64,000 nucleotides of DNA from Patescibacteria group bacterium (GTDB taxonomy: Bacteria; Patescibacteriota; Microgenomatia; UBA8517), in assembly GCA_022562395.1 (NCBI GenBank), contig JADFPI010000001.1:1456-65455 (forward strand), given 5' to 3'. Shown here piece after piece: positions 8,853-42,606 of this stretch. Under the pieces are notes generated by a model. That model was not told the origin of the DNA. It ran no database searches and saw only the letters and a program-made list of their open reading frames with translations. A program made the translations under genes and the position numbers. How positions within the stretch are numbered: position 1 is the stretch's first letter; every line of letters starts with the position of its first letter.

Positions 8853-8976
8853 GTAGAAATTGGTTGTTTGGAAAATGGAAATTAGTAATGGAAATTGGAA
8901 ACTAGAGAATGGATTGAAGCTAATTTCTACTTTCTACTTTCAATTACCAATCTCTAATTTCTAATAACTAATTTCT
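8853..8976. repeat. AT-rich GGAAAT(T)G(G) short tandem repeats in both orientations
   Basis: ggaaaatggaaattagtaatggaaattggaaactagag ... ctaatttctactttctactttcaattaccaatctctaatttctaa. Confidence 0.7.
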
Positions 8977-11220
8977 ATGTCATTAAAGGATTTATTGCCT
9001 AATACAAAAGATAAAGAGAGTAGTGAGCACTTCTGGGCATTGGTTATCGAGCCCGGCTGGGTCCAAGCAGGGATATGGACAATAGAGAAAGATGAGGCAA
9101 GGGTTGTTTCTATGAGTCCGGCCACTGCTTGGGAGGCAGAAGAGGATTTGATAGGAGCTTCTGACACCGCCCTATCGGCCGCAGTTCAGAATTTTGACGA
9201 GGAATTGGGAGAGCCTGAAAAAACTGTTTTTGGAGTTGCTTCTTCTTGGGTTTCCGAGGGCCAGATAAAGAAAGAATACTTGGAAAAAATCAGACAGATA
9301 TGCACCAAGCTTTCTTTGACGCCTTCGGGGTTCGTGGTGCTCCCGGAAGCAATCGCCAATTTTTTGAAGGCTGAAGAGGGCGCGCCGCTAAGCGCAATAG
9401 TGGTTGGCCTTGGGCCGGAAAGTATCGAGGTAGCAGTTTTTAAGCTAGGAAATTTGATAGGAACGGTAGAAGTGGCCAGAAGTGTTTCAATCTCCGACGA
9501 CGTAGCCGAGGGACTTTCTCGCTTTACCCCGGGTGAAACTTTTCCTTCTAGGTTTTTAGTCTATAACGGAAAGAAGGTAGAGTTGGAGGACGCCCGGCAA
9601 GCCTTGCTTAAAACCGACTGGGAGATACTAAAGATTAAATTTTTGCACACTCCCAAAGTTGAACTCATCGACTCTGAAAAGAAAGTTTTAGCGGTTTGTC
9701 TTGCCGGAGCATCAGAACTTGCCGATGTCAACTTGATTGCCAGAGAAGGGGAAGACGAAGAAGCCGTAGAAAATTTGGTTGAGCCCAAAGAAGAAGTTTC
9801 TCCGGAAGAGCTGGGTTTTGTGATAGGCGAGGATATTGCTAAAACTAAGCCCACAAGCGAAGAGGTGAGTGTTCAAGCCCAAGTCCAAAAACAAGTTTCA
9901 AGGCCAGAAAAAGCGGACGTGCCCGAAGCCGGAGAAGTAAAAGAGGCAAAAAAAGAAAAAAAGAAATTTACTGACAGGTTCCTCTTCTTTAAAAAGATTA
10001 ACCCATTTGCTATTTTAAGGGGGGTAAAAAAAGAAATTACGGCCGTTTCTAGAAAAACAGGAAGCTTTGATATTTTAGGTGCAATGACTAAAAGAATGCT
10101 TATCTTTGGGGTAATATTTTTATTTTTGGTTTTGGGTGGCGCTTTTGCTGCTTGGTGGTATTTACCGAAAGCGACGGTTGCAATATTTATTGCTCCCAAA
10201 AAGCTCGAACAGACATTGACCATTTTTGTCGACTCAAGAAACGGCAACCTGGAAGGCAAAGAAAATGTTTTGTCGGGGGAGGCTCTTGAGACAATAGTTT
10301 CTGGAGAAAAAACCAGGCAGGCTTCCGGGACAAAAACGGTCGGCGAGCGGGCCAAAGGAGTTGTCAGTATCCAAAACGGCACAGTAAATGATATCAGTTT
10401 GCCAAGCGGGACTTTTCTTGTTGGGCCAAACGACCTAAGCTTCACCACAGACTCTCAAGTTTTAATCCCGGCGGCTACTTCTCCCAGTAGTCCCGGACAA
10501 GCAGAGACAAACGTGACGGCTTCGGACATTGGGGCGGAATATAACTTGGCAAAGGATGAAAAGTTTAGTGTCGGCAATTTCGCGAAGGCAGAAGTGGATG
10601 CGACCGCTGTTTCTGATTTTAGTGGAGGAACGAGTAAGCAAATAGCGGTTGTTTCGGAAGAAGACCAAACGCAGCTTGAGAATGAGCTAGTCGACGAGCT
10701 TACTGAAAAAGCCTCCAGAGAGCTTCCCGGAAAAATTGCCGAAGGAGAGCTCTTCATTGAAGAGGCATTAAAAAGCGAGATAACAAAGCGCTCCTTTAGC
10801 CATAAGGTTGGCGATGAGACATCTAATGTAAAACTGTCTCTCACAACGGCGGTACTGGGGCTATCGGTGGAACGGGCAGATTTATTACAACTTGCAAAAG
10901 AGATACTTGAGGAGAAAGCTCCAGCCGGCTATGTATTAAGAGAGGAACAGGTGGATGTAAGTTTTAAATTTGTGGGGGAAGAAGAAGGCGTTTATGAATT
11001 GGCGGCGGTGTTCACGGCCAATTTTCTTCCTCAAGTAGATACCGAGGACATAAAGAAAAATATCGTCGGAAAGTATCCAACTATAGCTAGTGATTATTTA
11101 ACGGAGATTGCCGGATTTACCCGCGCTGAAATTTCCATTGTGCCGGAGTTGCCGGGTAGACTCGGAACGTTGCCAAGGATTGGTAAAAATATTAAAATTG
11201 AAATTGCGCCTGAGAGGTAA
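8977..11220 (+). CDS. hypothetical membrane protein (747 aa; N-terminal cytoplasmic domain, one central TM helix, long Glu/Ser/Thr-rich exodomain)
   Basis: Long ORF with TM MLIFGVIFLFLVLGGAFAAWWYL around aa 370. No confident family. The N-terminus faintly resembles the actin/PilM fold (inference, weak). Confidence 0.6.
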   Translation: MSLKDLLPNTKDKESSEHFWALVIEPGWVQAGIWTIEKDEARVVSMSPATAWEAEEDLIGASDTALSAAVQNFDEELGEPEKTVFGVASSWVSEGQIKKEYLEKIRQICTKLSLTPSGFVVLPEAIANFLKAEEGAPLSAIVVGLGPESIEVAVFKLGNLIGTVEVARSVSISDDVAEGLSRFTPGETFPSRFLVYNGKKVELEDARQALLKTDWEILKIKFLHTPKVELIDSEKKVLAVCLAGASELADVNLIAREGEDEEAVENLVEPKEEVSPEELGFVIGEDIAKTKPTSEEVSVQAQVQKQVSRPEKADVPEAGEVKEAKKEKKKFTDRFLFFKKINPFAILRGVKKEITAVSRKTGSFDILGAMTKRMLIFGVIFLFLVLGGAFAAWWYLPKATVAIFIAPKKLEQTLTIFVDSRNGNLEGKENVLSGEALETIVSGEKTRQASGTKTVGERAKGVVSIQNGTVNDISLPSGTFLVGPNDLSFTTDSQVLIPAATSPSSPGQAETNVTASDIGAEYNLAKDEKFSVGNFAKAEVDATAVSDFSGGTSKQIAVVSEEDQTQLENELVDELTEKASRELPGKIAEGELFIEEALKSEITKRSFSHKVGDETSNVKLSLTTAVLGLSVERADLLQLAKEILEEKAPAGYVLREEQVDVSFKFVGEEEGVYELAAVFTANFLPQVDTEDIKKNIVGKYPTIASDYLTEIAGFTRAEISIVPELPGRLGTLPRIGKNIKIEIAPER

Positions 11221-11222
11221 AT

Positions 11223-11930
11223 ATGAAAAAGATGGTTCTTTGGAAAACTGCCAGTCTAGTTTCTTTGATTTTGGGATTTTTTTTATTGGCTTCGGTTGTT
11301 GTTCCCATAATTTCATACGAGAGCGCTTCTCGCGAAAAGTACCCCGATCTCTTGAGCCCTATTGTCGCAAATAAACCCGTCCCCAAGCTTGAGTCCTTTG
11401 ATTATACTCGGGCGAGTAATTGGTTTATTGATGATTTGCCCACGGAAGAATTTATTTCTTCCAATATTTCTTACTATACTTTTTCTATCCCGAAGTTGGG
11501 AATAGAAAATGCCAGGGTCAATATAGGCGGAGAGGATTTGTCAAAGAGCCTTATTCAATATCCCGGAACTGCCCGCCCGGGTAAAGAAGGAAATACTGTA
11601 GTTTTTGGACACTCAATCCTTCCGCAGTTTTTTAATCCAAAAAACTACATTGCAATATTTTCTACATTGCCTGATTTGGAAAAAGGAGACGCAATAAATA
11701 TCGAATATGATGGAATTTCTTATACCTATATAGTTCAGGATATGTTTGAGGTGCTACCGACGGACCTTTATGTATTGGACCAAGGACAGAATGATTCTTA
11801 CCTATCAGTGATAACTTGTGTTCCTCCAGGACACCCTCTTAAGCCAAGAAGATTAGTGGTTAGAGCTAGAATTGTTCCTTTTGAAGCTTCGAGGCTTTCT
11901 CAACAGATAAATGCGGATATTAGGAATTGA
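11223..11930 (+). CDS. sortase (transpeptidase)
   Basis: N-terminal signal-anchor, GNTVVFGHS (His), LSVITCVPPG (TLxTC-type Cys) and RLVVRAR (Arg). Confidence 0.8.
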   Translation: MKKMVLWKTASLVSLILGFFLLASVVVPIISYESASREKYPDLLSPIVANKPVPKLESFDYTRASNWFIDDLPTEEFISSNISYYTFSIPKLGIENARVNIGGEDLSKSLIQYPGTARPGKEGNTVVFGHSILPQFFNPKNYIAIFSTLPDLEKGDAINIEYDGISYTYIVQDMFEVLPTDLYVLDQGQNDSYLSVITCVPPGHPLKPRRLVVRARIVPFEASRLSQQINADIRN

Positions 11931-12291
11931 TTACGGAAAGAAAAAAATTGGATTATCGATAGCGACCTCTCCGATAGCTGAGCCGTATAAGGTTGTCCGT
12001 TTTAAATCAGAAGAGGAGATGTTGGAAAAACTATCAAGGGTGTCAAAGACCCTAAGGGTGGCAAAAATAGTGGTTGGGGTTTCGGAGGGGAAAATGGGAA
12101 AAGAGTCTAGAAGATTTGGCAGTAAAATTGAAGAAAAGCTCAAAATTCCGGTTGTTTTTCAGGATGAGACTTTGACAACCCGAGAGGCCCAAGAACTCTC
12201 ACGAAAAGCAGGACTTAAAAGAAAAAAGAGACGCGGTTTAGAGGATGCCTATTCAGCCACACTAATCCTCCAACGTTATCTTGATAATTAG
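11911..12291 (+). CDS. ruvX: Holliday junction resolvase-like protein YqgF/RuvX
   Basis: ILGIDYGKKKIGLSIA, DETLTTREA and DAYSATLILQRYLD motifs. Confidence 0.8.
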   Translation: MRILGIDYGKKKIGLSIATSPIAEPYKVVRFKSEEEMLEKLSRVSKTLRVAKIVVGVSEGKMGKESRRFGSKIEEKLKIPVVFQDETLTTREAQELSRKAGLKRKKRRGLEDAYSATLILQRYLDN

Positions 12292-12346
12292 AAAATCTTT
12301 ATTTTACTGTTGATACCCTTTACTGTGTTATACTTGGGCTGTCAAT

Positions 12347-12547
12347 ATGTTCAAAAATGTTATCGCGCCGATTCAGGCCTGGCTTTTGAGCCAGGGAAAG
12401 TGTGTGGCCGATGGGCGGTCACTTTCGGAGGGTAAACGTGAGAAAAGGGGCGACGGAACTTTCAAGATTACCCACTCGTGTGGAAGAATATATATGTACG
12501 ACTCCAAAACAAAAAAGTATCGAAGGGCCCTTCTGGAAGAAGTCTAA
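12347..12547 (+). CDS. small hypothetical protein (66 aa)
   Basis: ORF only, with no clear signals. Confidence 0.25.
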   Translation: MFKNVIAPIQAWLLSQGKCVADGRSLSEGKREKRGDGTFKITHSCGRIYMYDSKTKKYRRALLEEV

Positions 12548-12567
12548 TCTGTTAAAATCCTAAAGAA

Positions 12568-13608
12568 ATGAAGAAATTTCCCTTTTTCGTTTTTCTGCTA
12601 ATCATTGTTGCGGTTCTTGTAGGGGTTTTAGGTGCGAGTTGGTGGAAGACCAACATAAAGGCTCCGTCACGCGAAGCTTCAATTGAGAGATTTGTTATTC
12701 CCAAAGGCTATTCTGCTTCCCAAATAGGAAATAGATTGTTTGAGCAGGGATTTATTAAAAATTCTCTGGCTTTCAAGTTTTATGTACAAGTCACCGGAAA
12801 AGCGGAAAAAATTCAAGCAGGTGAATTCACCCTGAGCCAGAACTTTTCATTGATTGAGGTGGTCGAAAGATTAACGGGCGGACCGGAGGAACTTTGGATT
12901 ACAATTCCGGAAGGGTTACGGCGAGAGGAGGTAGTCGAAAGAGTGATAGAAAGCCTGGAATTGGAGCCAGGAAAAGCCACCGTTTTTCGTAAGGAGTTTT
13001 TGGCTGAAACGGATGGTAAAGAGGGATTTTTATTTCCAGATACTTATCTGTTCCCCGGGGACATTGTGGCAAGTGTCGTTGTAGAAAAACTTGAAAGAAC
13101 TCTAGACAATAAAATTAGCGAATTTGCGGGTGCGATCTCTTCAAGCGGATATTCTGAAAAGGAGATTATTACCCTTGCGTCGATTATTGAGAGAGAAACT
13201 AAGACTGATAAAGAAAGGCCGGTTGTTGCCGGAATACTTTTTAATAGGCTTAAAATAGGGATGGCATTGCAAGTAGATGCCACGGTTCAATACGCGGTTG
13301 CAAATGTCAAATGTCAAATGTCCCCGGCCTCGCCAAGCGAAGCGGGGCGGGTAAATGTTAAATGTGGTGACTGGTGGCCGACATTGACGAAACAAGATTT
13401 GAAGATAGATTCACCTTACAATTCGTACAAATTTACCGGCTTACCTCCCGCTCCAATTGCCAATCCCGGAGTTTCTTCAATTCGCGCCGTTATATTCCCT
13501 GAAGATAGTGATTATTTGTATTATATCCACGATTCCGGGGGCAACATTCATTATGCGAAAACGCTAGAAGAACATAATGAGAATGTAAGAAGATATTTGG
13601 GTAAGTAG
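12568..13608 (+). CDS. mltG: endolytic murein transglycosylase MltG/YceG-like
   Basis: N-terminal TM, FVIPKGYSASQIGNRLFEQGFI, LASIIERETK and YNSYKFTGLPPAPIANPG motifs. Contains an in-frame (caaatgt)x3 microrepeat at 13298-13320. Confidence 0.8.
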   Translation: MKKFPFFVFLLIIVAVLVGVLGASWWKTNIKAPSREASIERFVIPKGYSASQIGNRLFEQGFIKNSLAFKFYVQVTGKAEKIQAGEFTLSQNFSLIEVVERLTGGPEELWITIPEGLRREEVVERVIESLELEPGKATVFRKEFLAETDGKEGFLFPDTYLFPGDIVASVVVEKLERTLDNKISEFAGAISSSGYSEKEIITLASIIERETKTDKERPVVAGILFNRLKIGMALQVDATVQYAVANVKCQMSPASPSEAGRVNVKCGDWWPTLTKQDLKIDSPYNSYKFTGLPPAPIANPGVSSIRAVIFPEDSDYLYYIHDSGGNIHYAKTLEEHNENVRRYLGK

Positions 13609-13617
13609 TTTTTCTTC

Positions 13618-13645
13618 TTGACAGGGTCAAAAGTGTGTGTATAAT
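13618..13645 (+). promoter_or_regulatory. Near-consensus sigma70 promoter TTGACA-N16-TATAAT upstream of rpoB
   Basis: -35 at 13618-13623 and -10 at 13640-13645 with an upstream GTGTG. Confidence 0.65.
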
Positions 13646-13675
13646 TTCCCTAGGCGTACGCAACGGTACGCAGAA

Positions 13676-13698
13676 CCCCCGTTTAACGGGGGAATTTT
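13676..13698 (+). promoter_or_regulatory. rpoB leader hairpin CCCCCG-tttaa-CGGGGG + AATTTT (attenuator-like)
   Basis: 6-bp GC stem followed by a U-rich tract, in the 5' UTR. A second hairpin GCGTAC-gcaacg-GTACGC lies at 13654-13671. Confidence 0.5.
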
Positions 13699-13704
13699 CC
13701 GTCT

Positions 13705-16700
13705 TTGACCGCCGAAAGTTTCATCCTAATGGCCCAAGTAAAACGCCGTAATTTTGGAAAAGAAGAAGGTAAGTTGCCTAAGCTGGACCTTTCTGCTGTT
13801 CAGATAGAATCTTGGGAAGGGTTTATAACAGAGGGGATAGCTCAGGAGATTTCCGAAATTACTCCAATAAACGACTTTACTGGAAAAAACTGGCAGCTCA
13901 CCCTTGGTGAGCACATACTTGGCGAACCCTCAATTAGCCCAGGGGTTGCTTCTGAAAAAGGTCTCACTCATTCCTCCCCCCTAAAAGTTAAAACCACCCT
14001 AATAAACAAAAAAACAGGAAAGGAAGTAAGGCAGGAAGTTTTTATGGGAGATCTTCCCCAAATGACCTCTCGCGGAACATTTATAGTAAATGGGGTTGAG
14101 AGAGCCGTGATTAATCAGCTCGTGCGCTCGCCGGGAATTTATTTTTCTGGGGAACTTGATGTCTCCTCAGGCCGAATGCTTTACAAGGCAGAAGTCAGGC
14201 CCCTTCATGGTTCCTGGCTGGAGTTTGAAGTAAACAGAAACGGTGTGATGGCAGCAAGAATAGACAGAAGAAGAAAAGTTACCGCGACCATCCTTCTAAG
14301 AGCGATGGGGATTGAGACAGAAAAAGAGCTAAAGGAGGTTTTTAAAGAGGTAGATAATAATCCTCAGCACAGATATTTGGAAAGTACGCTCGAGAAAGAC
14401 CCGACTGGAAATCGTGAAGAGGCCCTTTTAGAAATTTTTAGAAAGTTAAGACCGGGAGAGCCGGCGGTGCTGGAGAATGCCGAGGAGCTTTTTAATAACT
14501 TGTTCTTTGAGCCAAGGCGCTACAACCTTGGAAAAGTCGGTAGATTCAAAATTAACAAGAGGTTGGGATTGAAGCTCCCTAATGATAAATCAACTTGGGT
14601 TTTGACAAGGCAAGACATTATCGGAACAATTTCCTACCTAATAGGCCTACAAAATGGCGAAGGGAGAGTAGACGACATCGACCATTTAGCCAACAGAAGA
14701 CTAAGGAGGGTTGGTGAACTGGTGGCTACTAATTCTTTCAGGATTGGTCTTTTGAGGCTGGAGAGAAGTGTCAAAGAGAAAATGAGCCTGATTTCGCCGG
14801 ACGACAAGCCAATTCCGGCAAATCTAATAAACGCACGCCCCCTGATTGCTTCCTTGAACGAGTTTTTTCGCTCAAATCAGCTTTCCACAATACTTGACGA
14901 TACCAACCCATTAAGTGAAATAGACAACCTAAGGCGCGTTTCTGTTTTGGGCCCGGGTGGTATCAATCGTGAGCGCGCTTCTTTTTCAATACGCGACGTA
15001 AATTCTTCTCAATACGGAAGAATAGACCCGGTCAGGTCACCGGAGGGACCTAATATTGGTCTGGTTACTTACCTTGCGCTTTATGCACGAGTTAATGAGT
15101 ATGGGTTTTTGGAAACACCTTATAGGAAAGTAAAAAAGGTAAGAAAAGGGAGGAAGATAAAGGCCAAGGTAACCGATGAAATAGAATATCTTGCCGCTGA
15201 TGATGAGGAGGGATATCATATAACACATTCGGGAGTAGGCACAGACGGACATGGGTATATCACCGATAGCAGAGTTGCGTTAAGGTATAAATCAGAGTTT
15301 ATAGAAGGAGCCTCAGAGCTGGTTGACTATATCGATATTAGTCCACGCCAGGTGGTGGGTGCTTCTGCGTCTTTGATTCCTTTCTTGGCCCACGACGAAG
15401 GTAACCGCGCTCTTATGGGCTCGAACATGCAGTGCCAGGCTGTTCCTCTTGTAAAAACAGAATCTCCAATTGTTGGGACTGGAATGGAAGGACCAATTGC
15501 TGAAGGGATGGGAAGAGTTATTAAGGCTAGAAATGCGGGGACGGTGCAAAGCGCTGATGCAAGTCAGGTGGTCGTTAAACTTCACAAAAAGACTTCCGAT
15601 TTTTCCTCAGAAGAGATTGAGGTAAAAGATTCCGGTAAACAGGAGGCATATACGATTACAAAGTTTAAGAAGACTTCGCATTCAACCTGTTATAACCAAA
15701 GGGTTTTGGTCAAAGAAGGACAGAAGATAAAAGCAGGAGATATTTTGGCAGACGGACCGGCAATGGAAGAGGGAGAACTTGCTTTGGGCCAAAACTTACT
15801 AGTTGCCTATTGTTCATTCGAAGGATACGGTTTTGAGGACGCTATTTTGATTTCGGATAGGCTGGTTAAAGAGGACCTGATGACTTCAATTCACATCGAG
15901 GAATATGAGGCAGACATTGTTGATACAAAGCTTGGGCCAGAAGAACTTACTCGCGACATTCCAAATGTGGCGGAGAGTGATTTGGTAAATCTGGCAGAGG
16001 ACGGAATTGTAGTAGTCGGGGCAGAAGTTGGGCCAAACGACATCTTGGTCGGAAAAATTGCGCCCAAAGGGGAAACCGAGCTGACGGCAGAAGAGAGACT
16101 TTTGAGGGCAATTTTTGGCGAAAAGGCGCGTGAAGTTCGCGATACGTCTTTGCGTGTCCCCCATGGCCAAAAGGGAATTGTTGTCGACGTTCAAATACTA
16201 GACCGGGAAAAGGGAGACGAGCTTGGCCCGGGTGTTCTTAAAAGAGTAATAGTGCGTGTTGCCCAGATGAGGAAAATAACGGTAGGAGACAAGGTTGCAG
16301 GAAGACATGGAAACAAGGGGGTTATTGCCAAAATTATGCCGGTTGCCGACATGCCACATCTTGAAGACGGAACGCCAATTGACGTTATTATCTCCCCCCT
16401 GTCAGTTCTTGCTCGAATGAATTTAGGTCAGCTTTTAGAGTGTCACCTTGGTTGGGCCTTAAGCAAAAGGGGCGAGCGTGCCCAAGTTCCTGTGTTTGAG
16501 AAAGTGACCGAGGACATAATCACAAAAGAGCTAAAGGATTCTGGCCTTCCTGTTTCCGGAAAGGCCCAGCTTTATGATGGAAGAACGGGTGAGGCATTTA
16601 AAGAAGATACCGTTGTCGGAATTGGCTACATAATGAAGCTGATACATATGGTTGAGGATAAAACTCACGCTCGTTCTACCGGACCATATTCTTTGGTCAC

Positions 16701-20896: not shown

Positions 20897-20978
20897 TAAA
20901 ATACGAGCTTGTAAGTCAAAATTCAAAATATTGAATTATAATTTAAGTTTTGAGTTTTTACGTTTTAAGTTAATTATC

Positions 20979-21965: not shown

Positions 21966-21968
21966 GGC

Positions 21969-22154
21969 TCAAATGCTCTTTTTTGGTCCTTCCTCTATTT
22001 CCACATCGCCCGATATCTCAACTTTCTTGAAGTGTTGGCCGTAGTGGGTACAATCTTTTGTTTGGCAGACGTGCGCCCCTGCGTCGTGCTCCTCTTGGCT
22101 TACCTCTGCCTTACAAGTACCCGCACAAACGTACTTGACTTTCTTTTCTTCCAA
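21969..22154 (-). CDS. small Cys-rich protein (about 61 aa; CxxxC...CxxxxC, putative zinc ribbon) antisense within the str operon
   Basis: TTG start at 22154, preceded by a perfect SD AGGAGG (22164-22169) and an extended -10 TGGTATAAT (22182-22190). Product MEEKKVKYVCAGTCKAEVSQEEHDAGAHVCQTKDCTHYGQHF.... Track ORF 21969..22202 extends upstream of the SD. Confidence 0.55.
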   Translation of the reverse strand: MEEKKVKYVCAGTCKAEVSQEEHDAGAHVCQTKDCTHYGQHFKKVEISGDVEIEEGPKKSI

Positions 22155-22181
22155 AAAATTCACCTCCTTAACTTGATAGAA

Positions 22182-22190
22182 ATTATACCA
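22182..22190 (-). promoter_or_regulatory. Extended -10 (rc TGGTATAAT) for the small Cys-rich gene
   Basis: Plus strand reads attatacca. Confidence 0.55.
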
Positions 22191-22307
22191 GACTATCCGC
22201 AAGCGCCTGTATTCTCGCCCACTTCAGGTCGTAAGCGTGTGTTGATTTAATACTTATTGACTGGTAAAATCCTTCAAGGAAGCGAGAGGCCGCGTACCAT
22301 GCGGTTA

Positions 22308-22332
22308 CACGGTAAGCTTCCGTGTTTTTTTT
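22308..22332 (+). terminator. Intrinsic terminator-like hairpin CACGG-taagctt-CCGTG + T8, 34 nt upstream of fusA
   Basis: 5-bp stem followed by eight T. Confidence 0.6.
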
Positions 22333-22365
22333 GTTAAGATAAGAAAGTTAATTAACTTAAATACA

Positions 22366-26194: not shown

Positions 26195-26198
26195 AATC

Positions 26199-26227
26199 TT
26201 GCCCCTTTGTGCTTCATTTGGTATACT
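26199..26227 (+). promoter_or_regulatory. Candidate promoter TTGCCC-N17-TATACT right after rpsJ
   Basis: -35-like at 26199-26204 and -10-like at 26222-26227. Weak. Confidence 0.3.
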
Positions 26228-26292
26228 TTGCCTAACGTGGAGTGGTTCGTCGTAAATAGCCACGATTAGTTTTTTAGGATGTGCCAATTCGA

Positions 26293-26314
26293 GGCGCCTC
26301 CGGCGCCTTTTTTT
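26293..26314 (+). terminator. Intrinsic terminator GGCGCC-tcc-GGCGCC + T7 between rpsJ and rplC
   Basis: Perfect 6-bp GC stem with a 3-nt loop, then TTTTTTT. Confidence 0.7.
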
Positions 26315-26409
26315 GTGCTCGGATTTTCTAAGCACAACCATGGAGAGAGCGAAGCGAACGACAGGGTCTTTGTAATCGCCGAGATTCTATCGCTACGCTC
26401 CAGAATATT

Positions 26410-28996: not shown

Positions 28997-29023
28997 GCCT
29001 GAGCTAAGCTCATGAAATTCCAA

Positions 29024-29122
29024 ATTCCAAATGGCAAATTCCAAATGGTTCGACAAGCTCACCATCCTGAGCAAAGTCGAAGGACAAATTCAAATAACCA
29101 AAGTCCAAAATTACAAATCAAT
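29024..29122. repeat. CAAATTCCAAATGG-type tandem repeats (rc of GGAAATT family) between rplB and rpsS
   Basis: gaaattccaaattccaaatggcaaattccaaatgg, then degenerate caaattcaaataaccaaagtccaaaattacaaatcaa. Confidence 0.7.
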
Positions 29123-32894: not shown

Positions 32895-32925
32895 ACACAG
32901 GAGACAACTTAATGTTTTTAGATTA

Positions 32926-33205: not shown

Positions 33206-33212
33206 CCTTACT

Positions 33213-33239
33213 CGCACTTTCTTTGGGAAAGAAAGTGCG
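33213..33239 (+). promoter_or_regulatory. Strong hairpin CGCACTTTCTTT-ggg-AAAGAAAGTGCG immediately upstream of rpsH
   Basis: 12-bp perfect stem with a 3-nt loop and no U-run. It lies 23 nt before the rpsH ATG. Confidence 0.45.
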
Positions 33240-33262
33240 GCAAAGAAAAGAGAAGGAAAGTT

Positions 33263-33700: not shown

Positions 33701-33724
33701 CCGAAAAGAAAGTACGAGTAGGTT

Positions 33725-34276: not shown

Positions 34277-34638
34277 ACAAAACTAAGTCTAAGGGTGGAA
34301 GAGTGGCAAGGAGAAAACAAAGGACTCGCGCCAAAATTAAAGGTACGGCGGAGCGTCCCAGGCTTTCTGTTTTTCGCTCAAATAAACACGTTTATGCCCA
34401 GCTTATCGACGATACCAGGGGTGTTGTCTTACTCTCAGTTTCCGATAAAAAACTTGCAGAAAATAAAAAAGAGGGAAAGAAAAAGAAAGAGGTAGCCCAG
34501 ATGATTGGCGAGGCTATTGCCGAGAAGGCAAAAAAGAAAAAAATCAAAAAAGTCGTTTTTGATAGGGGTGCCTATAAGTATCACGGAAGGGTTGAGGCAG
34601 TTGCAGAGGGCGCTAGGAGAGGAGGGCTGAAATTTTAA
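34273..34638 (+). CDS. rplR: 50S ribosomal protein L18
   Basis: Family match. Confidence 0.93.
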
Positions 34639-35594: not shown

Positions 35595-35597
35595 AAT

Positions 35598-37513: not shown

Positions 37514-38264
37514 AATAAAAGTAAAGACCAAAAGAGAGATAGAAATTATGAAAGAAGGAGGTAAAAAACTGTCAAACATTAAAACAAAATTATCCAAAGC
37601 GATAAAGGGAGAAACAGACGCTGCAGAAATTGAGAAGATGGCAAATAAGTTAATAGAAGAAGCTGGAGGTAAGCCTTCTTTCAAAATGGTAGCAGGTTAT
37701 TCTTGGGCAACTTGTATTAATGTAAATGAGGGAGTTGTCCACGGAATTCCTAAAAAGGAAACAATTTTTTCAAAAGGAGACATTGTAAGTGTTGATGTAG
37801 GAATGTTTTATAAAGGATTTCATACCGATACCTCATTTACCGTTGGAATTTCGCCAAGCAAAGAGACGACTTTTTTTCTTATGTCTGGTAAAAAAGCTTT
37901 GGAGGCTGCTATAAAACAAGCAGACCTGGGAAGTCGGGTTTTTGATATATCAAAAGCAATACAGGTTAGTATTGAAAACTCTGGTTTTACGCCGGTTCGA
38001 GCACTGGTGGGTCACGGAATAGGTAGGGATTTGCACGAGGAGCCACAAATTCCTTGTTTTGTAAAGGGAGCGCGAAACCGCTCGCCCCTCTTGCCAGAAG
38101 GGGCAGTTTTAGCAATTGAGGTTATGTATACCAAGGGAACACCCAGCGTAACCGTTGTCGATGACGGATGGACAATTGAAACCTCTGATGGTAAAATGGC
38201 AGGGCTTTTTGAAGAGACCGTAGCTGTAACAGGCAACGGTCCTTTAGTTTTGACGACCAACTAG
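37500..38264 (+). CDS. map: methionine aminopeptidase type I
   Basis: Family match. Confidence 0.92.
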   Translation: MAKSKIKVKTKREIEIMKEGGKKLSNIKTKLSKAIKGETDAAEIEKMANKLIEEAGGKPSFKMVAGYSWATCINVNEGVVHGIPKKETIFSKGDIVSVDVGMFYKGFHTDTSFTVGISPSKETTFFLMSGKKALEAAIKQADLGSRVFDISKAIQVSIENSGFTPVRALVGHGIGRDLHEEPQIPCFVKGARNRSPLLPEGAVLAIEVMYTKGTPSVTVVDDGWTIETSDGKMAGLFEETVAVTGNGPLVLTTN

Positions 38265-38282
38265 TTTCTTTTCTGAATATCT

Positions 38283-38504
38283 ATGGTGAAAAATACAAAA
38301 AAGACAGAAAATTTTGACGGCGAAGTAACCGAAGCTTTGCCAAATACCATGTTTAGAGTAACCCTGAAAGATGGGAGAAAAATTTTGGCAATCTTAAAGG
38401 GAAGATTAAGGCGTCGATATGTACGAGTTTTTCCCGGAGACAAGGTTAAGGTTGAAATGACGCCGTATGATAAGGAGAGAGGAAGGATAATATATAAGTA
38501 TTAA
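38283..38504 (+). CDS. infA: translation initiation factor IF-1
   Basis: Family match. Confidence 0.93.
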   Translation: MVKNTKKTENFDGEVTEALPNTMFRVTLKDGRKILAILKGRLRRRYVRVFPGDKVKVEMTPYDKERGRIIYKY

Positions 38505-38522
38505 AAATACTAAATCTCAAGC

Positions 38523-38641
38523 GCCAAATTTCAAACAAATTCAAATGTCTAAAGCACAAAACTTAAAACAAACGAACCAGAATACATTTAAAATTTGAAT
38601 TTAGATATTGTTTGGAAATTGAAAATTGGAAATTGGTAATT
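38523..38641. repeat. GGAAATTG tandem repeats and a conserved 21-mer ttagatattgtttggaaattg upstream of rpmJ
   Basis: ggaaattgaaaattggaaattgg at 38614-38641. The 21-mer recurs at 42563-42583. Confidence 0.7.
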
Positions 38642-38655
38642 TAAGCGTAGCGCAT

Positions 38656-38769
38656 ATGAAGGTTCAATCGTCTATTAAAAAACGTTGTAAAAACTGCAAA
38701 ATTGTCAGAAGGCGTGGGGTAATTTACGTTATTTGTAATAACCCGCGCCATAAGCAAAGACAAGGATGA
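38656..38769 (+). CDS. rpmJ: 50S ribosomal protein L36 (C3H zinc ribbon)
   Basis: Manual translation gives [37 protein letters not shown]. It is below the ORF-track size cut-off. Confidence 0.9.
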
Positions 38770-38859
38770 TATTAGAGTAGAAGAACAGGAGAGTGGGAGA
38801 GCAGGAATCAATTTTATACTCTTCCACTCTTTTACTCTCTTGCTCTAAGCAAAGCGAAT

Positions 38860-39264
38860 ATGGCAAGAATCGCTGGAGTCGAACTAAACGATAACTTTAG
38901 GATAGATTACGCCCTAACTCAAATTAAGGGAATAGGGTGGTCATTGTCCAAGGACCTTTTGGAGAAATTGAAGATAGACGAATCAAAAAGAGTTTCTGAG
39001 CTCACATCAGAGGAACGTGCAAATATTGCCAGTAAAGTTGAGGAGCAGACAATTGAGGGAGAGCTGGCCAGGATAGTTAGGGGGAATATTTCGAGACTGC
39101 AGGCAATCGGTTCATATAGAGGATTAAGACATTCTAGGGGCTTGCCGGTAAGGGGACAGAGAACTCGAACAAACGCTAGAACCAAAAGAGGTAAAAGAAG
39201 AACAGTCGGTGCTTTCAAAAAAGAAGCACTTGTAAAAATGAAACAAACAAAAGAGGTAAAATAA
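38860..39264 (+). CDS. rpsM: 30S ribosomal protein S13
   Basis: Family match. Confidence 0.95.
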   Translation: MARIAGVELNDNFRIDYALTQIKGIGWSLSKDLLEKLKIDESKRVSELTSEERANIASKVEEQTIEGELARIVRGNISRLQAIGSYRGLRHSRGLPVRGQRTRTNARTKRGKRRTVGAFKKEALVKMKQTKEVK

Positions 39265-39265
39265 T

Positions 39266-39631
39266 ATGGCTGCTAAAAAAAAGACAAAGAAGGGACGAGC
39301 CTATATTTCGGCGTCATTTAACAATACTTTGGTGACAATTACCGATACTGAAGGAAATACTTTGACGTGGGGCTCAGCCGGTGCAGGTGGATTTAAAGGA
39401 ACAAGAAAATCTACCCCTTATGCTGCCACGAGCGCCGTCGATAAAGTAATTAGGCGTGCAAAGGACGAGCATGGGGTAGAAGAAGTTGAGATTTACATAA
39501 AGGGGCCGGGTCCGGGAAGAGACGCTGCTTTGAGAGCAATAAAAGGTTCGGGAGTTAAGATTTCAATGATTGCGGATGTTACTCCGATACCGTTCAATGG
39601 CCCAAGACAGAAGAAGAAAAGGAGAGTATAG
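39266..39631 (+). CDS. rpsK: 30S ribosomal protein S11
   Basis: Family match. Confidence 0.95.
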   Translation: MAAKKKTKKGRAYISASFNNTLVTITDTEGNTLTWGSAGAGGFKGTRKSTPYAATSAVDKVIRRAKDEHGVEEVEIYIKGPGPGRDAALRAIKGSGVKISMIADVTPIPFNGPRQKKKRRV

Positions 39632-39720
39632 GTTTAATGTTCAATTATCAATTATCAATTATTAAACAACACAAGGGAATTAATCTTTTTGGAAATTGGA
39701 AATTGGAAATTGGAAATTGG
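39632..39720. repeat. Tandem heptamers (CAATTAT)x3, then (GGAAATT)x4, between rpsK and rpsD
   Basis: caattatcaattatcaattat at 39643-39663. ggaaattggaaattggaaattggaaattgg at 39691-39720. Confidence 0.8.
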
Positions 39721-39736
39721 AGCGAAGGCGACTAAT

Positions 39737-40336
39737 ATGGCTAGATACACTGGACCAAAAGATAGACTGTCAAGACGCGAGGGTTTTGACCTTTTTGGCA
39801 AAGGGGCAAAACTGACTCGCTTAACCGTTCCGCCCGGGGTTCACGGACCAAAAGGTACCAGAAGGCGTTCGGAATATGGAAGGCAGTTGAGAGAAAAACA
39901 AAAAGCAAAAAGATTTTATGGGTTGATGGAGAGGCAGTTTAGAAGATACGTAAGTCAGGCCTTAAAAGCAAAAGGAAACACAGGGGAGAAGCTTATGAAT
40001 CTTTTAGAAAAAAGGCTAGACAACATTGTTTATAGACTTGGTTTTGCTCCGACAAGGCCTGCGGCAAGACAACTTGTGTCACACAAACACGTTTTGGTAG
40101 ATGGAAAGAAAGTAAATATACCTTCCTGTCAGGTCAAACCAGGACAGATAATAAGTTTAACTAAAACCGCTATGGAGATGCCGACTGTTAAGAAGCTTTT
40201 GAGTATTAAGAACCCAAAGGTGCCGGAATGGCTCGAAAGAAAAGCAGCTGTCGGGAAAGTTAAAAGAGAGCCTAAAAGAGAAGACATAATTGAGCCGATT
40301 GTAGAACAGGATATAGTAGAATTCTACTCTCGTTAA
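39737..40336 (+). CDS. rpsD: 30S ribosomal protein S4
   Basis: Starts MARYTGPKDRLSRREG. Track ORF 39689 begins inside the GGAAATT repeat and is rejected. Confidence 0.93.
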   Translation: MARYTGPKDRLSRREGFDLFGKGAKLTRLTVPPGVHGPKGTRRRSEYGRQLREKQKAKRFYGLMERQFRRYVSQALKAKGNTGEKLMNLLEKRLDNIVYRLGFAPTRPAARQLVSHKHVLVDGKKVNIPSCQVKPGQIISLTKTAMEMPTVKKLLSIKNPKVPEWLERKAAVGKVKREPKREDIIEPIVEQDIVEFYSR

Positions 40337-40466
40337 AAGTAGAAAATAACCAATTTCTAATTTCTAAACAATTTAAAAATGAAAAAATGTTTGAATGAAA
40401 TAAAAGTTGAAATTTCGAATTTTGAGATTAATTATTGTTTGGGATTTGAGTATTGTTATTTAGTAT

Positions 40467-40497
40467 TTCCCCGCCCAAATATGGAAATTTTTGGCGG
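40467..40497 (+). promoter_or_regulatory. Hairpin CCCCGCC-(17 nt)-GGCGGGG immediately upstream of the rpoA SD
   Basis: 7-bp GC stem. Confidence 0.35.
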
Positions 40498-40517
40498 GGC
40501 GCGGGGAGGTGAATTAT

Positions 40518-41426
40518 ATGAATGAGCCGTTATTTGAGACTAAACAAAAGAAAAAAGGTGATTATGCTAGGTTTGTGATTTCTCCCCTTGAACAAGGGTA
40601 CGGGTCCACGCTGGGAAATGCTTTAAGACGCGTTTTATTAACCAGCTTGCCGGGAGCTGCAGTAACTGGTGTAAAGATATCTGGTGTTAAACATCAGTTT
40701 TCAACTCTTTCAGGAGTTAAGGAAGACATTGTAGAGTTTTTACTTAATCTTAAAAAAGTAAGGTTTACCTATGATGGTGAAAAGAGTGTTAAAGCCTCTC
40801 TTTCGGTCAATGGCGCAGGGGACGTTAAGGCCAAGGAGATTAAGGTTCCAGCGACCGTAAAGATTGCCAACCCCGAGTTAGTACTGGCCACTCTTAGTAG
40901 AGGAGCAAAGTTAGACGCACAGATTGAAATAGAATCAGGTGCTGGATATTCGCTAGCAGAGGATAGAGAAAAACAAGGAATTGGATACATTCCTTTGGAT
41001 GCTTCATTCTCGCCCATTACCAGAGTCAATTATAAAATCGAAGAGACTCGTGTCGGAAGGTTGACAAACTATGACAAATTGATTTTGGAAATTTGGACAG
41101 ACGGAACAATAGCGCCCAAAGATGCACTTATTAAAGCCGCCAAAACTTTGGTTCCTTATCTAAATCAAATAATTTCTCCTAAAAAAGTCAAGAAAAAGGA
41201 AGAGAAGAAAGATGACGGCCTTGGACAGGTCGGGAAGCTTTCGGTAGAAGAGATTGGCTTACCCACGAGAGTGGCAAACGCTTTGGTTAAAGCGGGATAT
41301 GATTCTGTTGAGGACTTGGCTAAAGCAAAGAGAGAAGATTTTGTGAAGGTGAGGAACTTAGGAGAAAAGTCAATAAAAATTATTACACTTGCTCTTAAGG
41401 AGAAAGGAGTAGATTTTAAGGAGTAA
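40518..41426 (+). CDS. rpoA: DNA-directed RNA polymerase subunit alpha
   Basis: Family match. Start chosen at MNEPLF after the SD GGGGAGGTGA. Confidence 0.93.
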   Translation: MNEPLFETKQKKKGDYARFVISPLEQGYGSTLGNALRRVLLTSLPGAAVTGVKISGVKHQFSTLSGVKEDIVEFLLNLKKVRFTYDGEKSVKASLSVNGAGDVKAKEIKVPATVKIANPELVLATLSRGAKLDAQIEIESGAGYSLAEDREKQGIGYIPLDASFSPITRVNYKIEETRVGRLTNYDKLILEIWTDGTIAPKDALIKAAKTLVPYLNQIISPKKVKKKEEKKDDGLGQVGKLSVEEIGLPTRVANALVKAGYDSVEDLAKAKREDFVKVRNLGEKSIKIITLALKEKGVDFKE

Positions 41427-41430
41427 TATT

Positions 41431-41889
41431 ATGCGGAAAAGAGTGTATGGGCGAAAACTATCAAGAGGAGGTGGGGCAAGAAAGGCACTTTTTAGGGGGC
41501 TTATTTCTGCCATTGTTGCCAATGGGAAGATAAAAACAACAAAGGCTAAGGCAAAAGCAATCCAGGGGCAAATAGACAGACTAATAAATATTTCCAAAAA
41601 GGACACTGTTTCTACAAGGAGAAAAGTCTTGGCATTACTAGGTAACGATAGAGAAACATCTCAAAAAATATTCGAATATATTTCAAAGGCTTTCCCTAAT
41701 AGGAAAAGCGGCTATACTAGGTTGATTCCACTTCCGGTAAGACGCGGAGACGCAGCAGAAATGGTCAGGATGGAGTGGGTGAAAGAGATAGAGATAAGTA
41801 AGCAGCCTAAGTCTAAGAAAGAAAAAGAAAAGATTGAAAAGTCTACAAAGAGCAAGAAGTTAAGAAGTAAAATTTTTAGGAAAAAATAG
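41431..41889 (+). CDS. rplQ: 50S ribosomal protein L17 (K/E-rich C-terminal extension)
   Basis: Family match. Confidence 0.93.
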   Translation: MRKRVYGRKLSRGGGARKALFRGLISAIVANGKIKTTKAKAKAIQGQIDRLINISKKDTVSTRRKVLALLGNDRETSQKIFEYISKAFPNRKSGYTRLIPLPVRRGDAAEMVRMEWVKEIEISKQPKSKKEKEKIEKSTKSKKLRSKIFRKK

Positions 41890-41896
41890 CTTAGAC

Positions 41897-41925
41897 TTCA
41901 ACTTAGACTAAACTCTATTTATAAT
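41897..41925 (+). promoter_or_regulatory. Promoter TTCAAC-N17-TATAAT for rplM-rpsI
   Basis: -35 at 41897-41902 and -10 at 41920-41925. Confidence 0.45.
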
Positions 41926-42045
41926 CGTTGGCAGAACACCCCGATTTAATCGGGGCTGAATGCCAAAAACGATTACAAAATTCCGAGGCAGAATTTAAAA
42001 AAAATTAGCAATGAGCCCGCCAACTCATGTAAACTTGAAAAAATA

Positions 42046-42066
42046 CCGAGGGCTAAAAGCCCTCGG
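42046..42066 (+). promoter_or_regulatory. Hairpin CCGAGGGC-taaaa-GCCCTCGG 6 nt upstream of the rplM ATG
   Basis: 8-bp GC stem, sitting where the SD would be. Confidence 0.45.
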
Positions 42067-42072
42067 AAGTTT

Positions 42073-42501
42073 ATGAAAACTTTTCAACCAAAAGCAAAAG
42101 ATATAAAAAGGCAGTGGCATCTTATTGATATAAAAGGTGCTGTGCTAGGAAGAACTGCAAGCAAAATTTCTACTCTTTTGATGGGTAAAAATAAGGTAAA
42201 TTATGCGCCCCATATGGACATGGGAGATTATGTAGTTGTTGTAAACGCAAAGGACGTTAGAGTAACGGGAAAGAAGGAAAGCCAAAAGGTATATTATAGA
42301 CATTCTGGTTACCCCGGCGGCTTTAAAGAGATTGCTTTTTCAAAATTAAAAAAAAAGCATCCCGAAAAAATAATTGAACTTGCCGTAAAAAGAATGCTTC
42401 CCACTAACAGATTAAAGGATAAAAGAATGAGCAGGCTTAAGGTTTTTGCCGATAGTAATAATCCATATAAGGATAAATTTAAAAATCCAAGCACCAAATA
42501 G
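42073..42501 (+). CDS. rplM: 50S ribosomal protein L13
   Basis: Family match. Confidence 0.95.
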   Translation: MKTFQPKAKDIKRQWHLIDIKGAVLGRTASKISTLLMGKNKVNYAPHMDMGDYVVVVNAKDVRVTGKKESQKVYYRHSGYPGGFKEIAFSKLKKKHPEKIIELAVKRMLPTNRLKDKRMSRLKVFADSNNPYKDKFKNPSTK

Positions 42502-42507
42502 CAAATA

Positions 42508-42606
42508 AATCCAAAATCCAAATGTCAAAATCCAAAATGTTTTGAACATTCGGAAATTTGAACTTAGATATTGTTTGGAAATTGGAAATTGAGAATTGGA
42601 AATTCT
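42508..42606. repeat. AAATCCAAAAT-type and GGAAATTG tandem repeats plus the 21-mer ttagatattgtttggaaattg upstream of rpsI
   Basis: ggaaattggaaattgagaattggaaattc at 42577-42605. Confidence 0.7.

Follow-up and report, generated by a model that had tools for sequence, protein, structure and literature searches.

Heptamer-repeat cassettes at ribosomal-operon junctions of an uncultured Woesebacteria genome: candidate cis-acting mRNA elements

We analysed a stretch of 64,000 nt ("the window": forward-strand positions 1,456 to 65,455 of contig JADFPI010000001.1, assembly GCA_022562395.1) from an uncultured Candidatus Woesebacteria (Microgenomates, candidate phyla radiation (CPR)/Patescibacteria). 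Several junctions between its ribosomal-operon genes hold cassettes of about 70-150 nt built from tandem 7-nt units, among them GGAAATT. These cassettes are conserved between species at the same junctions and are exchanged or lost between strains of one species. Our tentative reading, to which we give a little less than an even chance, is a cis-acting function on the mRNA, exerted where translation of the downstream gene is initiated. The lineage was assigned from RpsD, which matches Woesebacteria metagenome-assembled genomes at no more than 75% identity; RpoA is identical to MCH7729943.1, "Patescibacteria group bacterium". The numbers L001-L236 used below label contigs and loci of strains, related Woesebacteria and metagenome contigs (the latter L117-L236).

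The repeats clearly exceed chance. The pattern GGAAATTGGAAATT, with at most one mismatch, has nine matches in the window against 0.12 expected; all lie on the plus strand, between 8870 and 42590, and none of 100 shuffles reached nine. Exact GGAAATT occurs 14 times in intergenic and seven times in coding sequence, that is, 1.82 versus 0.12 per kb, 15-fold denser between genes; within arrays it is found on the sense strand only. Tandem 7-nt copies beyond chance, mainly intergenic, are what is expected of the heptamer class of long simple sequence repeats (SSRs). The 21-mer TTAGATATTGTTTGGAAATTG has exactly two copies (38601-38621 and 42564-42584) against 0.01 expected. An earlier note on this DNA had reported it from the rpmJ and rpsI gaps; both copies are exact, although they lie 1-3 nt away from the positions given there. 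The related sequence that it mentioned before rpoA was located at 40426-40448.

Period-7 arrays were called with Tandem Repeats Finder (TRF) at 8869-8913, 8920-8977, 29015-29046, 38612-38641, 39641-39662 (TCAATTA, 3.1 copies, 100% matches), 39689-39721 (TTGGAAA, 4.7 copies, 100%), 40352-40367, 42507-42538 and 42575-42604. Each of the six places named in the earlier note thus has an array at it or a few bases away. Their description as perfect or near-perfect fits (GGAAATT)4 before rpsD, the sole perfect one, but not the others, which have 64-86% matches; the call at 40352-40367 comprises 2.3 copies. Nor do reverse-complement arrays accompany them, as had been proposed. The arrays contain no exact AATTTCC, nor is it enriched; the C-rich units are different ones (CCAAATT, CCAAAAT, CAATTAT, CTAATTT) and pair with (AAATTGG)n imperfectly, with about one mismatch per unit and partly via G:U pairs.

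In the streamlined ribosomal-protein operons of CPR bacteria almost no spacer is expected, and translation of downstream genes by coupling. In 31 Woesebacteria-like loci these junctions usually measure 0-30 nt, with the Shine-Dalgarno box of rpsD inside the end of rpsK, and expansions are lineage-specific. The remark that such gaps are normally minimal is therefore true of most relatives, and the gaps of the window are abnormally long for the lineage. The gene map around the arrays, confirmed by Pfam, is as follows.

7078-8850: alaS (stop codon 8848-8850)
8977-11220: a 747-aa gene, function not assigned
After the 747-aa gene, in this order: sortase, ruvX, yceG, rpoB, rpoC, rpsL (ATG 20980)
After rpsL: genes of the S10-spc-alpha operons, running through infA (38283-38504)
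38656-38769: rpmJ, followed by rpsM and then rpsK (39266-39631)
39737-40336: rpsD
40518-41426: rpoA, followed by rplQ
42073-42501: rplM
42626-43036: rpsI

A typical cassette consists of a C/A/U-rich heptamer arm, a loop, a G/A/U-rich arm and a short tail of the (A)GCGAAG type, followed by the start codon. The arrays abut gene ends: the C-rich arm lies at or over the upstream stop codon, and the G-rich arm ends 5-20 nt before the downstream start. Runs of about four units stop 14 nt short of the start of rpmJ, 15 nt short of that of rpsD and 19 nt short of that of rpsI, and (TTTAAGT)4 ends 8 nt before rpsL. In position, these arrays correspond to the start-proximal arrays of two to six copies known for TAACTGA-type repeats (see below), but the TAACTGA unit itself is not used. 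The individual elements are listed below; all are on the plus strand.

8853-8913, plus strand: G-rich arm of the alaS/747-aa-gene cassette; imperfect GGAAATT, GGAAAAT and GGAAACT units (TRF 6.6 copies, 64% matches), with GGAAATTGGAAATT-type matches at 8870 and 8890
8920-8976, plus strand: C-rich arm of the same cassette; CTAATTT/CTACTTT units (TRF 8.4 copies, 75%), pairing with 8855-8913
20942-20971, plus strand: (TTTAAGT)~4 in the rpoC-rpsL gap (TRF), with its end 8 nt upstream of the rpsL ATG (20980)
29015-29048, plus strand: C-rich array (CCAAATT)n directly after the rplB stop (TRF 4.6 copies, 84% matches)
29051-29084, plus strand: central GC hairpin TTCGAC..GCTCA..TGAGC..GTCGAAGG of the rplB-rpsS gap (from folding), a motif of the CCTGAGC-N-GTCGAAGG type
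29085-29122, plus strand: degenerate second C/A-rich tract before rpsS, a direct repeat of 29021-29045 at 76% identity
38509-38655, plus strand: the infA-rpmJ cassette, H1; C-rich arm about 38520-38548, loop, G-rich arm about 38591-38641, 21-mer at 38601-38621
39636-39662, plus strand: 5' arm of the rpsK-rpsD cassette, (CAATTAT)3, of C, A and U only (TRF 3.1 copies, 100%)
39684-39736, plus strand: rpsD leader; T-run, (GGAAATT)4 and GGAGCGAAGGCGACTAAT with the Shine-Dalgarno box, ending at the ATG at 39737
40344-40462, plus strand: the rpsD-rpoA cassette, third paralogue; C-rich arm (CCAATTTCTAATTTCTAAAC...) and degenerate G-rich arm (GATTAATTATTGTTTGGGATTTGAG...); nhmmer E = 6e-24
40464-40510, plus strand: GC-rich hairpin CCCCGCC..GGCGGGG (from folding) beside the rpoA Shine-Dalgarno box (GGGGAGGTG), outside the heptamer family
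42481-42613, plus strand: the rplM-rpsI cassette, second paralogue; C-rich arm of CCAAAAT units 42483-42538, G-rich arm 42552-42606; nhmmer E = 3e-30

The infA-rpmJ, rplM-rpsI and rpsD-rpoA cassettes can be aligned over about 125-135 nt at 71% column identity and are therefore paralogues. Non-repetitive parts, such as the 21-mer and CCAAGCRCCAAAT, are common to paralogues. In H1 (nhmmer E = 6e-32; fold z = -2.3) the tail AAGCGTAGCGCAT directly precedes the rpmJ ATG at 38656. In the rplM-rpsI cassette the G-rich arm contains the 21-mer (42564-42584), and the C-rich arm begins inside rplM, supplying its last codons and the stop (42499-42501). The rpsD-rpoA cassette folds weakly (z = -1.2); the GC-rich hairpin next to it shows one C/T difference among strains. 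In the rpsK-rpsD cassette the (CAATTAT)3 arm pairs with the G-rich arm via G:U pairs, with one A:A mismatch per unit, and the sense strand folds at -16.2 kcal/mol (z = -2.8) versus -9.3 kcal/mol (z = -1.2) for the antisense strand.

Two elements listed by the earlier note do not conform to its description. The array at 8853-8976 does not sit in the ribosomal super-operon but between alaS and the 747-aa gene, and its arm order is reversed, the G-rich arm coming first. The region 8851-8976 folds into one long stem with a mismatch at about every seventh position (-39.7 kcal/mol, z = -6.6; antisense -29.0 kcal/mol, z = -5.7), and the base of this hairpin sets the alaS stop codon beside the ATG at 8977. 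In the rplB-rpsS gap, in turn, the array at 29015 is (CCAAATT)n, with the reverse complement GGAATTT, and an inverted-repeat search of the gap found no G-rich partner for 29015-29048. The gap has only C-rich tracts around the small GC hairpin. The (TTTAAGT)4 array abutting rpsL was absent from the note, as were the larger cassettes of about 125 nt, the three paralogues, the within-species polymorphism and the between-species conservation; at the (TTTAAGT)4 array no Shine-Dalgarno sequence is visible.

None of the six frames of a tandem GGAAATT array contains a stop, which is true of only 35 of the 192 two-GC heptamer classes; such an array therefore produces false open reading frame (ORF) extensions. 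As the earlier note had supposed, the ORFs starting at 39689 and 42596 are of this kind, the true starts being the ATG at 39737 (rpsD) and the GTG at 42626 (rpsI). Public gene calls repeat the error, giving an S4 of 215 aa and an S9 of 146 aa. Translation of the arrays as part of S4 and S9 was rejected: homologues begin at MARY... and at the GTG start, and relatives have no array.

By RpoA and RpsD, the window belongs to a genus-level clade with L415 (85% RpoA identity), L411 (84%) and L412 (81%), while L018 falls outside it (70%). Third codon positions between these species are about 47% identical and thus saturated. The rpsD leader is, over 50 nt, 98% identical to that of L412 and 96% identical to that of L018. 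The T-run, (GGAAATT)4 with all four units and GGAGCGARRGCGACTAAT are shared, while the third codon positions over the first 300 nt of rpsD are 48-58% identical to those of the same genomes. The 5' arms of the rpsD cassette differ by lineage (CAATTAT, AAATATC, AAATTAC), and L411 has a different hairpin before rpsD. H1 is 95% identical to its counterpart in L411, against 76% for the coding sequence and 47% for its third positions. Its arms are identical at 88 of 88 positions (31 + 57 nt), and the 13 differences are all confined to loop, GC clamps and tail, the chance of which, were they placed at random, is (66/154)^13, or about 2e-5. These arms are imperfect arrays, with the same "errors" in both species. 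In the rplM-rpsI gap, the segment that opens with the TTAGATATTGTTT motif, takes in the G-rich arm and runs up to the rpsI start codon is about 89% identical to L412 (manual count). Related cassettes were found in the same gap of L016 and L029, and nhmmer detected full-length relatives in L016, L029, L190 and L234. Orthologues (89-98%) are closer to each other than paralogues within one genome (71%), and the copies are thus old and conserved in place rather than recently spread. From these alignments, the pattern suggests purifying selection at each locus, and conservation of the arms is compatible with some sequence-specific partner.

The window arrays are one instance of a wider habit of the lineage. 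Expanded gaps of relatives often have arms with 7-nt periodicity but other units. Arrays of period 7 or 14 make up 35% of tandem arrays in the window, 21% in Microgenomates loci and 8% in a Firmicutes outgroup. Relatives, with 836 kb analysed, have 53 heptamer arrays of three to six units, with many different units, and 81% of period-7 arrays are intergenic-like.

Within the species, where the flanks of strains are 99.4-99.9% identical, the infA-rpmJ gap has four alleles.

H1 alone: the window and three contigs
H2 alone, an unrelated 62-nt hairpin: 11 contigs
H2 and H1 together: three loci from one contig
A compact 68-nt cassette of GGATTT/GGAATT units: L108

Each of these alleles keeps sequence with complementary arms, capable of forming a hairpin. 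Other gaps are invariant in the 5-10 contigs that cover them (rplB-rpsS, 10; rpsD leader, 8; rplM-rpsI, 5). The suggestion that the repeats are slippage-prone SSRs holds for one unit-number change, L003 having four CAATTAT units instead of three, but not for the G-rich arrays. A comparison of copy number among strains, proposed as a check, gave the same division: the G-rich arrays are unchanged in 5-8 contigs per gap and between species. Insertion polymorphism between close genomes, as is characteristic of mobile elements, is seen in the infA-rpmJ alleles and in one replaced rpsD-rpoA gap (L004). No target-site duplication is visible at the junctions of the infA-rpmJ alleles A, B and C or at the boundaries of the L004 replacement; the arms are imperfectly complementary and do not form terminal inverted repeats with a target-site duplication. 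Pfam finds no transposase or REP-associated tyrosine transposase (RAYT) gene in the 64-kb window, and H2, the L004 replacement and allele D have no second copies among the sequences compared.

Public contigs of the species often stop at the cassette gaps: L095 and L096 break off with the infA stop codon, and L113-L116 within the rpsK-rpsD gap or close to it. These ends fit assembly breaks caused by allele heterogeneity or repeats.

The earlier note had offered internal promoters or UP elements as an explanation. Promoter and terminator consensus scans covered 6.5-44 kb of the window. Canonical promoters are used there, as seen from 12/12 matches to TTGACA-N16-18-TATAAT before rpoB (13618) and tuf (24539). 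In the rpmJ, rpsD and rpsI gaps no sigma-70 -35/-10 pairs with 16-18 nt spacing were found on the plus strand, and the same scans found no terminators in the heptamer gaps. A single weak match of 9/12 (TTGAAA-17-AATTAT, 40407-40435) lies in the rpoA gap, and overall promoter counts are at the shuffle level. Moreover, most same-species contigs have no H1 in the infA-rpmJ gap, and among the metagenome matches listed (see below) (GGAAATT)n lies mostly within coding regions. Judged by these scans, the cassettes are not promoters.

Several other ideas were considered and rejected. A DNA uptake sequence would not account for the data, GGAAATT in coding regions occurring at 0.12 per kb, equal to the estimate from base composition (about 0.12 per kb). 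A G-quadruplex, by analogy with Xanthomonas, was dismissed as GGAAATT has only GG. A likeness of TTAGATA to the 790-loop of 16S rRNA was judged a chance 7-mer match.

The sense strand is favoured by z-score in six of the seven window elements, and 37 of 57 expanded Microgenomates gaps have z < -2. The only strong Watson-Crick inverted repeat is 8839-8978, the other stems resting on G:U pairs. The rplM-rpsI cassettes of L016 and L029 have TTCGAA/TCCGAAA-type units in both arms, the two arms having changed jointly, and that of L016 forms one long hairpin (z = -5.7), which suggests that arm pairing matters in at least some cassettes. No cassette matches an Rfam family: at gathering thresholds the window yielded only tRNA-Pro and a SAM riboswitch, both elsewhere, and an E-value search of 38200-43100 gave chance matches only.

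We tentatively favour a role in cis on the mRNA because of the locus-specific purifying selection, the placement on the sense strand by the ribosome-binding site and the presence of hairpin-capable sequence in every infA-rpmJ allele. The TAACTGA heptamers found before S4 in Beggiatoaceae are a precedent (PMC4679880). On the polycistronic mRNA, the cassette would belong to the region where translation of the downstream gene starts. Its conserved, sequence-specific part would be the G-rich arm, with GGA every 7 nt, reaching or nearly reaching the ribosome-binding site; it may serve the ribosome, or a putative RNA-binding partner, as an operator or enhancer. The C-rich arm would be a partly complementary anti-arm that pairs with the G-rich arm and folds the spacer. 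In such a folded spacer the upstream stop would come to lie beside the downstream start, and the ribosome-binding site could be masked. What the data show are the layout of the cassettes, their paralogy, the lack of promoters, the conservation between species and the turnover within one. Action at the RNA level and the logic of alternative pairing are, like the trans-acting partner, what we infer from this arrangement.

A number of observations weigh against such a role. The cassettes are dispensable: H1 is missing from 11 of 19 strain contigs, in L004 the rpsD-rpoA cassette is lost, the gap being wholly replaced by unrelated sequence, and in sister species the gaps can be very short (rplM-rpsI 3 nt and rpsD-rpoA 15 nt in L415; rpsD-rpoA 16-18 nt in L411 and L412). 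The spread is patchy, as the rpsD leader occurs in L018 (70% RpoA identity) and is missing from L411 (84%) and from the L007-L010 group. The high identity between the window and L411 runs about 45 nt into rpmJ, which fits a structured initiation region or a transferred tract. The hairpins are mostly weak, z being -6.6 for 8851-8976 and from -1.2 to -2.8 for GGAAATT-type cassettes, and the rpsD leader of L018 is unfolded (z = -0.3). The RNAalifold consensus of the three paralogues (-7.5 kcal/mol) has essentially no covariation, with too few sequences for such a test. Over the 57 expanded gaps, the asymmetry of folding between sense and antisense strands is not significant (Wilcoxon p = 0.14), and thus folding cannot separate structure at the RNA level from a palindrome at the DNA level. 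Among the metagenome matches listed (see below), intergenic (GGAAATT)n shows no orientation preference relative to neighbouring genes.

The main rival to a cis-acting leader, which we consider unlikely but serious, is that the cassettes are selfish palindromic elements. These would resemble MITEs (miniature transposable elements with inverted repeats), repetitive extragenic palindromes (REPs), the Rickettsia palindromic elements (RPEs) reportedly described by Ogata et al. 2000, or "homing"-like elements. They would invade specific junctions and spread horizontally between Woesebacteria, the arms being kept for mobilisation and effects on expression being incidental. Three paralogues within 4 kb, similar over the whole element, are what such a multi-copy family would leave, and so are the presence, absence and replacement of alleles among nearly identical strains. 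The same holds for the patchy distribution, with near-identical sequence where the genes are about 70% identical, for arms that are kept while the internal loop diverges, and for the high-identity tract entering rpmJ. Public contigs often end at these gaps, other metagenomic genomes contain modules like the G-rich arm as well as full-length relatives, even within genes, and expanded gaps are overwhelmingly of the hairpin type on both strands. However, a recently active family should show the opposite of what is observed, since here the paralogues are far more diverged than the orthologues. Different species carry the same cassette at the same junction, and the lack of visible target-site duplications, of a transposase or RAYT gene in the window and of second copies of H2, the L004 replacement and allele D also speaks against mobility.

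Two further explanations remain. That the arrays are neutral microsatellites, heptamer SSRs produced by replication slippage in AT-rich spacers, we consider improbable. Among long SSRs, heptamers are the class found in excess in many bacteria (Mrazek 2007, as cited in PMC4679880 and PMC4692102), and the enrichment of period 7/14, the 53 arrays of many units in relatives, mostly intergenic, and the unit-number change of L003 all agree with slippage. So does the frequency of (GGAAATT)3 in viral contigs, which does not exceed that of composition-matched permutations. However, neutral repeats would not stay 96-100% identical across species with saturated synonymous sites, nor would imperfect arms share the same "errors". 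The 21-mer and CCAAGCRCCAAAT are non-repetitive and yet common to paralogues, and the G-rich arrays do not vary in copy number among 5-8 strain contigs per gap. Action as double-stranded DNA, either as iterated sites for a nucleoid or regulatory protein or as promoters or UP elements for rpmJ, rpsD, rpoA and rpsI, is in our view very improbable. The motif is indeed AT-rich, iterated and conserved, folding has no significant strand asymmetry, and the weak match at 40407-40435 is promoter-like. But the rpmJ, rpsD and rpsI gaps have no -35/-10 pairs while perfect promoters occur elsewhere in the window, and arrays lying 5-20 nt from start codons leave no room for a promoter and a leader. In addition, alleles and species without cassettes still express these essential genes, and arrays of exact GGAAATT all lie on the sense strand.

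A scan of metagenome contigs for (GGAAATT)3 yielded at least 120 loci, with GC content of 0.28-0.64. The 120 matches listed include no contig of the window's species. In viral contigs (GGAAATT)3 is no commoner than composition-matched permuted heptamers, and hence the abundance of at least 120 loci cannot be read as enrichment. Among the matches listed, long ORFs contain 73 of 123 arrays, and most arrays have four units (modal length 30 nt), above all those in ORFs. Tandem-repeat units within genes are normally multiples of three, and a 7-nt unit in ORFs is unusual. In-frame arrays are found at recurrent sites in conserved housekeeping genes: LeuRS (L222, L127, L132, L170), TsaD (L126, L192, L207, L213), LepA (L152, L173), IscS (L139), TrmD (L153, L133), RsmA, TsaE and, in both orientations, GT4 glycosyltransferases. 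The arrays encode cyclic peptides, GNWKLEI (..LEIGNWKLEI..) or NFQFPIS. In LeuRS, the encoded peptide of 10 residues stands in place of an equally long native beta-hairpin, and degenerate versions are found in Patescibacteria homologues. The conserved flank of the metagenome arrays is limited to the two preceding bases, TT. One possibility, rather doubtful in our opinion, is that TT(GGAAATT)4, about 30 nt long, is a frame-neutral, self-maintaining module. It would spread among Patescibacteria, needing no transposase of its own, into intercistronic junctions and into surface loops of essential proteins, perhaps via transformation and microhomology or gene conversion, and the window cassettes would be its non-coding face. 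This idea is based on the fraction of listed arrays within long ORFs, the recurrent sites, the 30-nt mode and the beta-hairpin replacement in LeuRS.

The cassettes belong to a known class of bacterial heptanucleotide tandem repeats, in a new phylum. New are the architecture of two arms, the paralogues, and the conservation between species combined with turnover within one. Part of this class are heptanucleotide repeats of cyanobacteria, known as STRR (short tandemly repeated repetitive sequences).

Direct repeats of the heptamer TAACTGA are found in marine Beggiatoaceae, some Cyanobacteria and Bacteroidetes (MacGregor 2015, PMC4679880). They occur in two to six copies just before start codons in ribosomal-protein operons, including that of rpsD (S4), often without a canonical ribosome-binding site and sometimes overlapping gene ends; their patchy distribution suggests transfer, and a post-transcriptional role was proposed (PMC4679880). 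The Woesebacteria repeats share with them the 7-nt unit, the position by the start codon, the ribosomal-protein operons, the patchy distribution and the overlap with gene ends (PMC4679880). In contrast, TAACTGA has stops in the three forward frames whereas GGAAATT is stop-free in six, and our repeats form complementary C-rich and G-rich arms of paralogous cassettes of about 125 nt, in CPR/Patescibacteria. Conservation between species together with allele turnover within one is documented here.

Xanthomonas has GGGAATC repeats, in four-unit arrays, some of them inverted, and Nostoc has GGGGA(C/T)T repeats (Rehm et al. 2015, PMC4692102); three tandem heptanucleotides of Calothrix PCC 7601 are among the examples cited in PMC4692102. 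Like GGAAATT, the units GGGAATC and GGGGATT are G-rich and then A/T, the arrays are intergenic with a mode of four units, some are inverted pairs able to form stem-loops, and the same gaps are occupied in related species (PMC4692102). However, the Xanthomonas and Nostoc repeats (GGG/GGGG) are prone to form G-quadruplexes and vary extensively in length and sequence between close species, whereas GGAAATT cannot form a G-quadruplex and its arrays are nearly invariant between species. Unlike here, no tie to operon-internal junctions of ribosomal genes has been described for them (PMC4692102).

Small palindromic mobile repeats, namely REPs, the bacterial interspersed mosaic elements (BIMEs) and MITEs, are reviewed in PMC10969869. 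With these and with RPEs the cassettes share a length of about 100-150 nt, the ability to form a hairpin, operon-internal junctions, several copies, and presence or absence between strains. The tolerance for coding sequence known from RPEs is mirrored in the 3' end of rplM and in the in-frame arrays of metagenomic genes. Unlike mobile repeats, the cassettes have no terminal inverted repeats with a target-site duplication and no transposase was found in the 64-kb window; the paralogues are old and diverged, the orthologues conserved, and the arms consist of heptamers in tandem, not of unique sequence. As in the Rfam leaders of S4 and L13, a conserved, lineage-specific non-coding RNA directly precedes ribosomal-protein cistrons at the ribosome-binding site. 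Here, however, there is no Rfam match, one motif precedes unrelated cistrons (rpmJ, rpoA, rpsI and the 747-aa gene), and the sequence is of low complexity, built from repeats and dispensable in sister species.

Other structures were noticed in the gaps of the window and its relatives. The rpmJ-rpsM gap (38770-38859) contains a hairpin with a purine and a pyrimidine arm (-35 kcal/mol, z = -6.6), and the rpsN-rpsH gap (33206-33262) a hairpin of the form ACTTTCTTT-loop-AAAGAAAGT, a type seen in different gaps of several Woesebacteria. Such hairpin families also occupy gaps of L008, L014, L020 and L411. The CCTGAGC-N-GTCGAAGG motif, a small GC hairpin ending in GAAGG, often lies directly before start codons in Woesebacteria gaps; it was found in the window at 29051-29084 and about 54500-54525, in L013 (8753-8800), L024 (1440-1476) and L025 (9960-9985). 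The rpsJ-rplC gap of the S10 operon (26195-26409, 215 nt) has a promoter-like site at 26199 (TTGCCC-17-TATACT with TG) and a strong terminator-like hairpin with a T-run at 26291-26309, and may be an attenuator. The rpsG-fusA gap (21966-22365, 400 nt; minimum free energy -113 kcal/mol) contains an antisense ORF of 77 aa (21969-22202, minus strand), a promoter-like site at 22242-22270 and a terminator-like hairpin at 22307-22325. Compared with the window at 43031-43051, L001 has an insertion of about 900 nt (12458-13371) between rpsI and a PMT_2 glycosyltransferase gene; the 261-aa ORF in it has no Pfam hit on record.

Outside the cassette gaps, a 67-aa MazE/AbrB-like ORF is present in two minus-strand copies (332-535 and 1773-1976) within a duplicated region of about 370 nt (332-590 and 1773-2013). 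These ORFs adjoin arrays of the palindrome CTACTGAATTAATTCAGTAG (TTAACTACTGAA x3.3 at 537-576; 1990-2013), and a third copy of the palindrome lies downstream of tRNA-Pro, at about 61540-61565; the palindromes are probably antitoxin operator sites. The SAM riboswitch (RF00162, 48.9 bits) at 3849-3962 on the minus strand is upstream of a 140-aa ORF (3351-3773, minus strand) with no Pfam match. An 87-nt tandem repeat at 50722-50882 encodes dockerin-like GDINGDGKVDIFDYN segments across the overlap of the ORFs 49505-50887 and 50884-52215. Similar sequence lies in the following "gap" (52216-52464), and the arrangement suggests a frameshifted or mis-split gene.

The arrays have practical consequences: they mislead gene callers, so that S4 and S9 stand in public records with false N-terminal extensions, and they break metagenome assemblies at the cassette gaps. 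As to the biology, several ribosomal junctions of this genome hold repeat cassettes whose conservation between species exceeds that of the adjoining ribosomal genes, and which are nevertheless swapped or lost between strains. If the cassettes are selfish, they show what type of insertion an essential operon tolerates, namely one that is capable of forming a hairpin and keeps the stop and the start together. If they are translational operators, they would constitute a lineage-specific, repeat-based layer of control over ribosome synthesis in uncultured organisms.

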